From contig JBFLWF010000001.1 in the NCBI GenBank assembly GCA_040758355.1, forward strand, positions 177,442 to 241,441: a DNA stretch of 64,000 nt, written 5' to 3'. The position numbers are program-made. Position 1 is the stretch's first letter, and each line of letters starts with the position of its first letter. The DNA comes from Nitrospirota bacterium. Lineage in GTDB: Bacteria > Nitrospirota > Thermodesulfovibrionia > Thermodesulfovibrionales > Dissulfurispiraceae. This document shows positions 41,401 to 44,400 of this stretch, in pieces.

Positions 41401-44400
41401 ATACAAAGAGGGTCATAGACAATCTCCAGTATCAGAAGAGGCAGAAAAGAGAGGCGAGGATACAGGAGTTCTATTCAAGGGCACTGAATGCCATACTCGG
41501 CGACAAAGAGGAAGAGGCAAAGGATGCCTTGAAGGATATACTCAAGGAAGACCCTGAACATATAGATGCCCTTCTGAGACTGGGCGACATATCTCTTAAC
41601 AATAAGGATTACAAGACAGCACTTGACTATTACAGAAAGGCAAAAGACATCGATCCAAAAAATCTGCAGGCTCTTCTTTCCATAGAGACAGTGACGGAGA
41701 GGATGCAGAGGCATGACGATGCCCTTAAATACCTCGATGAGATACTCGATATAGATTCTGAAAACCTTACTGCCCTTTACAGGAAGCGTGCAATCCTCGA
41801 AAAGAAGGATATGTGGGATGACCTCCTATCCCTGCAGAGGACAATAATCAAGCTCGAGCACAGCGAAAGCGACAAGCAGCAGGAAGAACACAGACTGCTC
41901 GGCTATAAATATGAATATGCACGCTCAAGCCTCGAAAGTGGCGAATTGGAGAAGGCAGAAAAGGCATTCAGGACAATGATAAAGATGAATGACGGTTTTA
42001 TCCCTGCTTATCTCGGCCTTGCAGAGGTCATCCTGACCAGAGGAGAAACAGAGGAGGCCATAAACTTCCTGGAAAAGGCATACGAGCAGTTGAAATCCAT
42101 AATAATACTTGCACGCCTCGAAGACCTGCTCATCAATGTTGGAGAGCCGGGAAGACTGATACGGTTTTACAGGAATGCCATAGCGAAAAGCCCGCAGGAC
42201 AACGGGCTGAGATTTCTCCTTGGAAAACTTTACTACAGGCTTGAGATGGTGGAGGATGCGATGGATTTATTGAATTCCATAGATACCAATGTTTTTTCCG
42301 TGCCAGAGCTTTTCAGCCTGCGGGGTGAATTGTATATAAAGAGAAACCAGATTCCAAAGGCGCTTGACGAGCTTAAAAAGGCATGCGGGATACGGCGTCC
42401 CTTCAGGATACAGTACTGCTGCTCCAATTGCGGTTTCAGGTCGGAGGACTGGTCAGGGAGATGTCCTCAGTGCATGGAATGGAATACTTACCGTCTTGAT
42501 GTATATGGCACCTGCAAAGCGTAAAAAGAGTGATGAGTCATCATCACCAATTACCCATCACCCATCACAGCCGTTAAATGTTGTTCTGGATACGAGCCTC
42601 TTTGTGAATCCTGATGTGAGGACGAGTCTTGGTAGTAATCCCACAGAGGCTTTGGAGACATTCCTTTTCCTCGCAGCACAGATACACGTGCTTGAATTTT
42701 ACATGCCCCCTTCCATTTTCGAGGAGCTTCTGCACTTTGTAGAGAGGGACAAAATACCTGCAGACCTCCTCCTGATTTTGCACCAGAAGCCTCCGAAGAA
42801 ACATGAATTGAAAACCCCTGCATTCCTATTGTACGAGCTAATCGAGGATATAAGGGAAAGGGTTAATAAGGGGTTGAGGGTTGCAGAGAAGGCTGTAAGG
42901 AGTGCGGAGAGCAAAAAGGCTGACGAGATTATTCAGGACATGAGGAGGAAATACAGAGAGGCGCTGCGTGAAGGCATAATCGACAGCAAGGAGGATGTGG
43001 ACCTGCTTTTGCTCGCAATGGAGCTTGATGCCCTGCTCATTACAGCAGACCATGGTCTGATAAAATGGGCTGAAAAGTTGGGCATACGATGGCTCTTTCC
43101 CGAGAAGTTCAAGGAATACCTGATGAGCGCCATAAAGAGGACAGAGTTAATCAAAAAATCCTTTGCCCATGAGCCTGTGCCTTAGTTCTCTCGTGCCCTT
43201 GATGTAGATCCTGTAAAACTTCAGCCTGTAATAATCGCCCGATTTTTCCACGGATACAAGCTGGGTGCGGACACCCGAGCGGTTCAGGTGTTGTATTAAT
43301 TCATCCACCGTATTTTTGTTTCTCACTCTGACATGAAAAAACTCCTTTACGCTTTCGCCTTCTGCAACTGCCCTTAAAGTCTCTTCTGGTATGAGGTATA
43401 ATGCCTTTGCAGAGCTTATAAGATATTCGCTGCTGAACGGTATTCCGAATTCGTGGCAGAAAAACACAGCCCTCAATATCCTCTGCGTAAAGAAACCCGC
43501 GGGTAGCTCTGTGATGAGATGGGTTGTTGCCTGCAAATCCCTGAGACATGAAGAGAGTGTGACATACTTTACCGGTTTGCCATCGGAAACAGGCTTGATC
43601 ACTATTCCTTCCCTGCCATCCCTGTCCAGTTCGAGGATAATATTTTTTACGGCATCCACATCCGATGTGCCGCCCGATACATTAAACGGCCCCCATCTTC
43701 TTATCTGCTGTATATTAAAGCGTTCAAATATCCTGTAACGTTCTTCTACAGGCAAATGATTTCCCTTTTCATTTAGAAGGTCGAAGGCAAAGAGGACAAC
43801 ATCTTCATCGATATACGGGATGATTTCTGTATTGTAAGGACTTCCTGGACCCACGACCTCACAGCAGATTATGTATTCCGGATATTCATTGAAGAAATTA
43901 ATGTCGATGAGGTCCTGTATTCTGTCTGTAGTAAATGGACATACAAATCCTCCCCGTGTAAATGCAATAGGAGTCCCGTTTATGGCAGCTACCCTCACAT
44001 TGTATCCATCCACCTTTTCTTCGACATAGAATTTATTTTTGAAATATCGGTTTATTCCATTGGCAAGATGGAGTATCCTCATAATCTTCGGATAGCCAGG
44101 TATAATGCCTTTATCATAAAAAACAGTGCCCCGCGGATAGCATTTATATTCCTGCGAGAGCCTTACAAAGGTGATGTTATTGAACTGGGACGTGTGGAGG
44201 GATTCTCTTTCTTTGAGTGTTGTTATATCTTTTTCTGCGAGATGCTTTTCTAAGAAGTCAGGATAAGGTGTGTTCATCTTTGAAGTGTTTTTTCTTCTTC
44301 TTTTAATGCCTTTTCCATGAGTTTTCTCTTCTTGGATGGCACGACCTTTCCTTTCAAGGATGATACAGGAATCTTTTCTCTGGAAGACTTTTTGATTAAT

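Follow-up and report, generated by a model that had tools for sequence, protein, structure and literature searches.

The closest described counterpart of the locus analysed here is the HARP-only state of the Aquificaceae, in which HARP (Aq880), an RNase P made of protein alone, is present and rnpA and rnpB, the genes of the ribonucleoprotein enzyme (RNP), are both absent (PMC10941002, PMC8266387). Replacement of the ribozyme has been argued from this one bacterial family, with chance, genome size and heat put forward as explanations (PMC10941002). To date such a swap has been known from a small number of thermophilic bacteria. HARPs prefer A at position -1, and A(-1) is found in 38 of the 44 Aquifex tRNA genes (PMC12439589). 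Thermodesulfovibrio yellowstonii, a member of the same class as our source genome, was reported in 2016 to lack both RNP components (PMC4779614). A few HARP-only genera of Nitrospirae were noted in 2019 with RnpA as the sole proxy (PMC6380272), and nine HARP-positive genomes were listed in 2025 (PMC12153264, Table S1). The parts of these papers considered here contain no state tree, no coexisting or RNP-only sisters and no second order. Thermodesulfatator indicus carries a dual RNase P that has been proposed as a pre-loss state (PMC9945441). HARP has also been described as a pair with an Rnl3 RNA ligase (TIGR03875 + TIGR01209), a shared function or binding of the two being offered as a hypothesis only, and inactivity on pre-tRNA has been reported for some bacterial HARPs that form the expected oligomers (PMC12153264).

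The window, a 64-kb stretch of the source genome (G000; other G numbers denote genomes of relatives and f numbers their families), contains a HARP gene in the same convergent, overlapping arrangement with an Rnl3 ligase gene as in the published pair (PMC12153264). G000 further shares with the Aquificaceae the gene order rpmH–yidD–yidC (PMC10941002) and the catalytic and spike-helix residues of HARP. We assign a probability of about 0.78 to the following overall reading: HARP would act as the housekeeping RNase P, having coexisted early with the RNP; the RNP would then have been lost repeatedly and HARP about four times, with a regain of HARP in f12.

HARP gene and its neighbourhood

The HARP reading frame is intact, with in-frame ATG codons at 42499 and 42505 and a stop at 43185 (Table 1). 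It encodes a single domain of ~200 aa that matches PF08745 (E 1.1e-60 in a profile search) and TIGR03875 (207.8 bits, cut-off 95.3), so that the HARP/PIN_5 gene named in a preliminary description of this DNA is borne out. The closest solved relatives are the HARP structures 7E8K/7E8O (7E8K, E 2.9e-66, residues 26–211), and every one of the best PDB relatives is named RNA-free ribonuclease P. The alignment with 8KD9 extends through residue 189/190 of that protein and thus takes in the C-terminal oligomer helix. Among the residues described as important in Aq880 (PMC8266387, PMC12217051), the catalytic acids D7, D138, E141, D142 and D160 all have equivalents in the G000 protein, which also has the spike-helix residues R125 and R129. 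Equivalents of D7, R125, R129, D138, E141, D142, D144 and D160 are invariant across all 106 HARPs of the class. The HARPs of f10 are 51–59% identical to that of G000. Taken alone, the gene is, as far as its sequence goes, an ordinary family member.

The Rnl3 ligase gene is convergent with HARP, and the two 3' ends overlap by 39 bp. Elsewhere in the window, an island that may be related to defence follows a glnS-like gene, and a cobalamin riboswitch lies immediately downstream of tmRNA.

Table 1. Features of the 64-kb window (window positions)
Feature	Position	Strand	Evidence or content
rlmH-type SPOUT methyltransferase	40688..41125	+	PF02590 E 3.9e-44; recurs upstream of lapB–HARP
lapB-like gene (TPR repeats + rubredoxin zinc ribbon)	41196..42524	+	TPR + PF18073; overlaps HARP start
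HARP, protein-only RNase P (PIN_5), 226–228 aa	42499..43185	+	PF08745, TIGR03875, PDB match 7E8K, catalytic and tRNA-binding residues
Rnl3 / Pab1020-type RNA ligase	43147..44277	-	TIGR01209 325 bits (cut-off 137); PF09414 + PF18330
tRNA-Leu(CAG), example substrate	44474..44557	-	-10-like hexamer ends 7 nt before +1
Island after glnS-like gene, possibly defence-related	46320-52067		742-aa double GHKL ATPase, receiver-like ORF, two ORFs without Pfam family
MqsA/HTH/Panacea antitoxin-like ORF, within the island	47042-48049		
Cobalamin riboswitch immediately downstream of tmRNA	21176-21382 and 21677-22020	-	

Absence of rnpB and rnpA

RF00010 gives nothing above cut-off in G000: with all 55 candidates scored, the best reaches 8.2 bits (E 3). 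PF00825, the RnpA family, gives no match (best E 0.18); control matches to RF00010 were obtained in B. subtilis and L. lactis. A class-specific rnpB profile built from 36 rnpB genes reaches 5.8 bits at best in G000, against 187–284 bits for held-out families in a leave-one-family-out comparison, and an RnpA profile built from 29 proteins reaches 8.8 bits at best. The two ancestral sites are closed inside contigs, which rules out assembly gaps as the reason for the absence. Only 13 bp separate rpmH from yidD, and at the ancestral rnpB site about 56 bp lie between a zinc-ribbon gene and lysR. The preliminary description had stated that G000 has neither gene, which now stands on four profiles and two closed sites. 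It had also placed yidC directly behind rpmH, which is not the case, as yidD (TIGR00278) intervenes. Ten of the 44 G000 tRNAs lie inside clusters and require 5' cuts, so the cell needs RNase P activity. The gene content supports HARP as the only recognisable RNase P of this genome.

The same sites can be followed among relatives. The rpmH–yidD gap, measurable at 63 loci (two more gave none), is -1 to 212 bp in the 47 genomes without native rnpA and 307–433 bp in the 16 with it. Of 36 rnpB loci, 29 have the gene just after the zinc-ribbon gene, and rnpB was present at this site in four of six rnpB-positive loci examined. No rnpB profile match occurs downstream of the zinc-ribbon gene in any of 44 rnpB-negative genomes (44/44). 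Twenty-five of those loci are contiguous to lysR, 17 with gaps of at most 230 bp and eight with gaps of 396–697 bp. Seven of these eight longer gaps contain an ORF that we take, from its motif, to be RNase H-like. An Rfam search at E up to 1 in 15 emptied rnpB loci returned no RNase P family.

Distribution of the two enzymes across the class

The order was sampled with the same 150 genomes that underlie the preliminary description, using strict filters and 8–9 scored candidates per genome for RF00010. The per-family tallies of RF00010 and PF08745 are reproduced exactly, and the RnpA tally that had been lacking (63/150) tracks rnpB. Counted genome by genome, the sample divides into 83 HARP-only and 47 RNP-only genomes, 17 with both enzymes and three with neither; baseline miss rates in this set are 6/150 for rpoB and 2/150 for rpmH. 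Among the genomes with neither, G064 and G300, which are also without lapB, and G149, which is without rpmH and rpoB, are set aside as gaps; G032 is treated below. The 83 include G119, in which a stray rnpA accompanies an additional rpmH copy on a contig of 1.1 kb; the native one of the two rpmH copies has a 116-bp gap, and the genome is scored HARP-only. HARP is present in 83 of the 84 order genomes in which rnpA is shown or inferred to be lost and the lapB site is not shown to be unassembled, the exception being G032.

Family labels conceal part of this variation. The three families said to hold both enzymes do contain both states, but they are mosaics: 17 of their 35 genomes have both, 5 are HARP-only and 13 RNP-only. 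Thus f8 comprises 14 genomes with both enzymes and three HARP-only, and f12 comprises 13 RNP-only, two with both and two HARP-only. For the three families said to be RNA-only the tallies reproduce, but f7 includes G032, in which rnpA and rnpB are gone from their sites. Where the enzymes coexist, rnpB is not decayed beside HARP; its scores are not lower there (median 296 bits against 262). The length of rnpB varies between ~360 and 530 nt; long forms are found both in f8, which has HARP, and in f2, which is RNP-only and has none.

The pattern reaches past the order, across the class. In a second order, HARP occurs without rnpB in 38 of 40 genomes. The sole rnpB over cut-off there belongs to G268, a genome without HARP. 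The same genome has rnpA, which otherwise turns up on two very small contigs. Stray rnpA genes in G273 (1.6-kb contig) and G278 (0.6-kb contig) were treated as likely contamination. In a third order rnpB is present in 5/5 genomes and HARP in 1/5. The one HARP (G301; L283:1435-2064) is divergent, at 43% identity; it lies at the lapB site in a genome that keeps rnpB, and its catalytic residues are intact. G301 is the only support from this deepest order, with a long-branch HARP and no place in the marker tree. A missing rnpB is no sign of an incomplete genome in this class.

Probable repeated loss of the ribonucleoprotein enzyme

Species trees were built from one gene cluster, nusG–rpoC, under LG+G4, with 100 and 118 genomes (FastTree) and with 36 genomes (IQ-TREE quick). 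In four f4 genomes (G092, G108, G115, G040) rpoB lies in frames of ~2700 aa, which suggests an rpoB–rpoC fusion. The trees interleave HARP-only, dual and RNP-only states. Whether the seven HARP-only families form one clade had been left open; this preset group is now rejected by the AU test (p 9.6e-46). Three further groups, chosen after viewing a tree, are rejected as well: f3+f5 joined with f1+f9+f10 (p 0.0023), G021 with G008 (p 9.6e-32), and f6+f11 with G113+G148 (p 1.7e-59). The earlier claim that all stages of the replacement occur in one order holds in that RNP-only, dual and HARP-only genomes all exist, but they are not one family-ordered series, because the HARP-only families are no single clade and because f8 and f12 mix states.

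A loss-only count on the marker tree gives 10 RNP losses, which fall to eight without G074 and G032 and to seven if f6 and f11 are sisters. G074 was dropped as a separate loss, its markers being partial and its LapB placing it in f6. We infer at least 7–8 independent RNP losses, which would have occurred in the second order, f11, f6 (possibly with f11), f3+f5, f1+f9+f10, G008+G044, G021 and G113+G148. Regain of the RNP appears unlikely, because two unlinked genes would have had to return to the old sites at which they stand.

The lapB site and the history of HARP

HARP lies behind lapB in 97 of the 106 HARP loci, in three orders. This shared site indicates that the class ancestor probably carried HARP and the RNP together. 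No HARP follows lapB in seven HARP-negative genomes (G001, G007, G012, G016, G268, G032, G149), nor in the HARP-positive G148. For the RNP-only families, a loss of HARP is much the likelier history than its absence from the start, because they stand inside the HARP-bearing tree and HARP is missing at their ancestral site. We infer a single arrival near the class root, at which harp, probably with the Rnl3 ligase, would have settled behind lapB with rnpA and rnpB still present. Two working enzymes would have made either one deletable, and HARP itself would have been lost about four times: in f14, in G268, in f2+f12 and in f4+f7. A named-locus scan for a donor of the class HARP returned close relatives only, and a wide tree carried long-branch warnings. 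Two f1 genomes, G031 (L193) and G075 (L186), have no lapB between rlmH and HARP.

The history of HARP is not wholly vertical. In the HARP tree the f6 and f12 copies nest among f1/f9/f10 (support 98), and the AU test rejects both f1+f9+f10 (p 0.003) and f6+f11+f12+f13 (p 1.6e-9), so there has been transfer within the class, which in f6 involved the lapB site itself. The f6 loci have an f1-like HARP after an f6-type lapB, an apparent in-place gene replacement, and the f12 and f9 copies are positioned away from lapB. This conflict with the species tree, the displaced copies and the lack of HARP in other classes of the phylum (0/109 genomes) would also fit an RNP-only ancestor followed by many sideways arrivals of HARP, each permitting loss of the RNP, with RNP-only families that never had HARP. 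We regard that course of events as unlikely. It would need repeated insertion at the lapB site, itself improbable for a position common to three orders; several HARP clades (second order, f8, f3+f5, f11+f13) agree with the LapB and marker clades; and many RNP losses would still be required.

Under early coexistence followed by loss, f12 stands out as a probable case of return. LapB of G148 groups with f2/f12, the f12 HARPs group with f1/f9, the f12 ligases join f1 and HARP is off the lapB site; part of f12 would therefore have taken up HARP and its ligase again by lateral transfer, with an f1/f9-like donor and new sites of insertion. G113 and G148 would then have lost the RNP a further time. 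In G148, which is HARP-only, the space from rpmH to yidD still contains a truncated relic of rnpA (L537:581-760, E 1e-9).

G032 is placed firmly in f7 by the marker and LapB trees. Its rpmH–yidD gap is 96 bp and the gap at its rnpB site 130 bp, and lapB is followed by what is presumably a thioredoxin-reductase-like gene. The assembly (2.5 Mb, 90% complete, about 380 contigs) yields no HARP and no ligase match, with loci L325, L576, L612 and L556 at the ancestral sites. A search for a close relative found none, the best reaching 52%. Immediately ahead of secE is a tRNA-Trp gene, for which the 67 bases read show no evident promoter. That G032 is a bacterium with no known form of RNase P is improbable; a relocated HARP in the unassembled tenth of the genome is more likely, f9 and f12 both having such displaced copies. 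If it did lack every known form, G032, whose operon-internal tRNA-Trp needs a 5' cut, would imply an additional, unknown route to mature tRNA 5' ends.

HARP and the Rnl3 ligase

The ligase is found in 31 of the 150 order genomes, all of them HARP-positive, and in none of the 50 HARP-negative genomes. It has no match in 63 of the 83 HARP-only genomes, and tRNA maturation by HARP would therefore not need it. Judged by this distribution, the ligase reads as an optional passenger. In G053 it is split in two pieces and lies away from HARP.

Diverged P RNAs may drop below model cut-offs (PMC8172020); two archaea can do without HARP, and four bacterial HARPs were inactive (PMC12153264). On such grounds an undetected, diverged RNA enzyme or another nuclease might act in these cells, with HARP serving chiefly in a different role together with the ligase. 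This is very unlikely here. rnpA is gone from its own site and the rnpB site is deleted; rnpB scores among the 150 genomes are 169–340 bits or none, without intermediates; HARP is retained in all but one of the 84 genomes that lost rnpA; and most HARP-only genomes are without a ligase match. HARP thus remains the predicted housekeeping RNase P of the G000 cell.

tRNA substrates, promoters and temperature

The -1 position was compared in five genomes, for which the tRNA matches listed number 45 in G023, 32 in G272, 47 in G016 and 32 in G007, the last three being incomplete. The A(-1) signature of Aquifex was sought in three HARP-only genomes and is not seen: A(-1) occurs in 9/44 tRNA genes of G000, 10/44 of G023 and 6/30 of G272, against 38/44 in Aquifex (PMC12439589). 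The RNP-only genomes G016 and G007 have 15/42 and 4/30, and U(-1) dominates in all five. G at -1 is absent from the three HARP-only genomes (0/118) and occurs in 7/72 RNP-only tRNAs. For tRNA(CAT), whose counts come from kin that are not independent, G(-1) is found in 0/40 HARP-only, 6/17 RNP-only and 3/13 dual cases. Pairs of G:C at -1:73 are absent or rare (0/44, 0/44 and 1/30 in G000, G023 and G272), the same rarity as in the Aquificaceae. In the HARP-only G272 (L504–L533), CCA is encoded in 30/30 tRNA genes, as against 2/44 in G023; one HARP is reported to cut CCA-bearing substrates about tenfold slower (PMC12153264).

A TAnnnT hexamer ends 6–9 nt before +1 in 14 of 34 first-in-cluster tRNAs of G000 (shuffle mean 6.4, maximum 13) and 16 of 24 of G023 (shuffle mean 5.8, maximum 11). 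The counts are 8/26 in HARP-only G272 (mean 5.4) and 8/25 in RNP-only G016 (mean 3.7). The hexamers near +1 in G000 and G023 predict leaders of 0–3 nt. Such enrichment might suggest that leaderless transcription largely spares RNase P and that a weak HARP is enough, the least credible of the alternatives, given that the signal is weak in G272 and present in G016 and that clustered and operon-internal tRNAs need cutting anyway, so that the load would be lightened and the enzyme not replaced.

Amino acid composition shows no general link with heat, and thermophily was set aside as a driver on this weak proxy. The IVYWREL fraction of RpoB is 0.433–0.454 in most HARP-only families and 0.433–0.446 in RNP-only ones, and is higher only in f9 and f10 (0.46). 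A temperature formula applied to crude ORFs, likewise a weak proxy, gives ~46 C for G000. With HARP as the housekeeping enzyme, the swap would be a chance loss arising from redundancy rather than a response to heat, and would not have required the A(-1) tRNA adaptation of Aquifex. The G000 organism would work like Aquifex but fails the Aquifex tRNA signature, which predicts one of two things: that its HARP prefers another base at -1, or that slow growth and short leaders make the mismatch tolerable.

Comparison with known RNase P replacements

This class offers independent contrasts on which the drivers of replacement of an ancient ribozyme by a slower protein can be tested: 7–8 predicted RNP losses, about four reverse losses, 17 dual genomes and a second round caught with its rnpA relic. 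The first results speak against heat and against an obligatory A(-1) adaptation. HARP, its ligase neighbour, the HARP-only Aquificaceae and Thermodesulfovibrio, and the dual enzymes of T. indicus are already published. The check at the RNA level, which the preliminary description had counted as new, is not so for the type species T. yellowstonii, for which the absence of both parts was reported in 2016 (PMC4779614). The new part is the probable class-wide, repeated, two-way loss; a literature search, with subscription journals largely outside it, turned up no paper in which repeated or reciprocal RNase P loss is described for the class.

The HARP–Rnl3 pair of G000 has the published layout, and the difference from that system is that most HARP-only genomes of the order show no ligase match. 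The dual state proposed for T. indicus as preceding loss (PMC9945441) is matched by the 17 dual genomes, and the class adds both outcomes among close relatives, together with the rnpA relic of G148. For the Aquificaceae, the parts of the literature considered here describe one ancestral loss; the class of G000 would have undergone at least 7–8 losses of the RNP, plus losses in the reverse direction.
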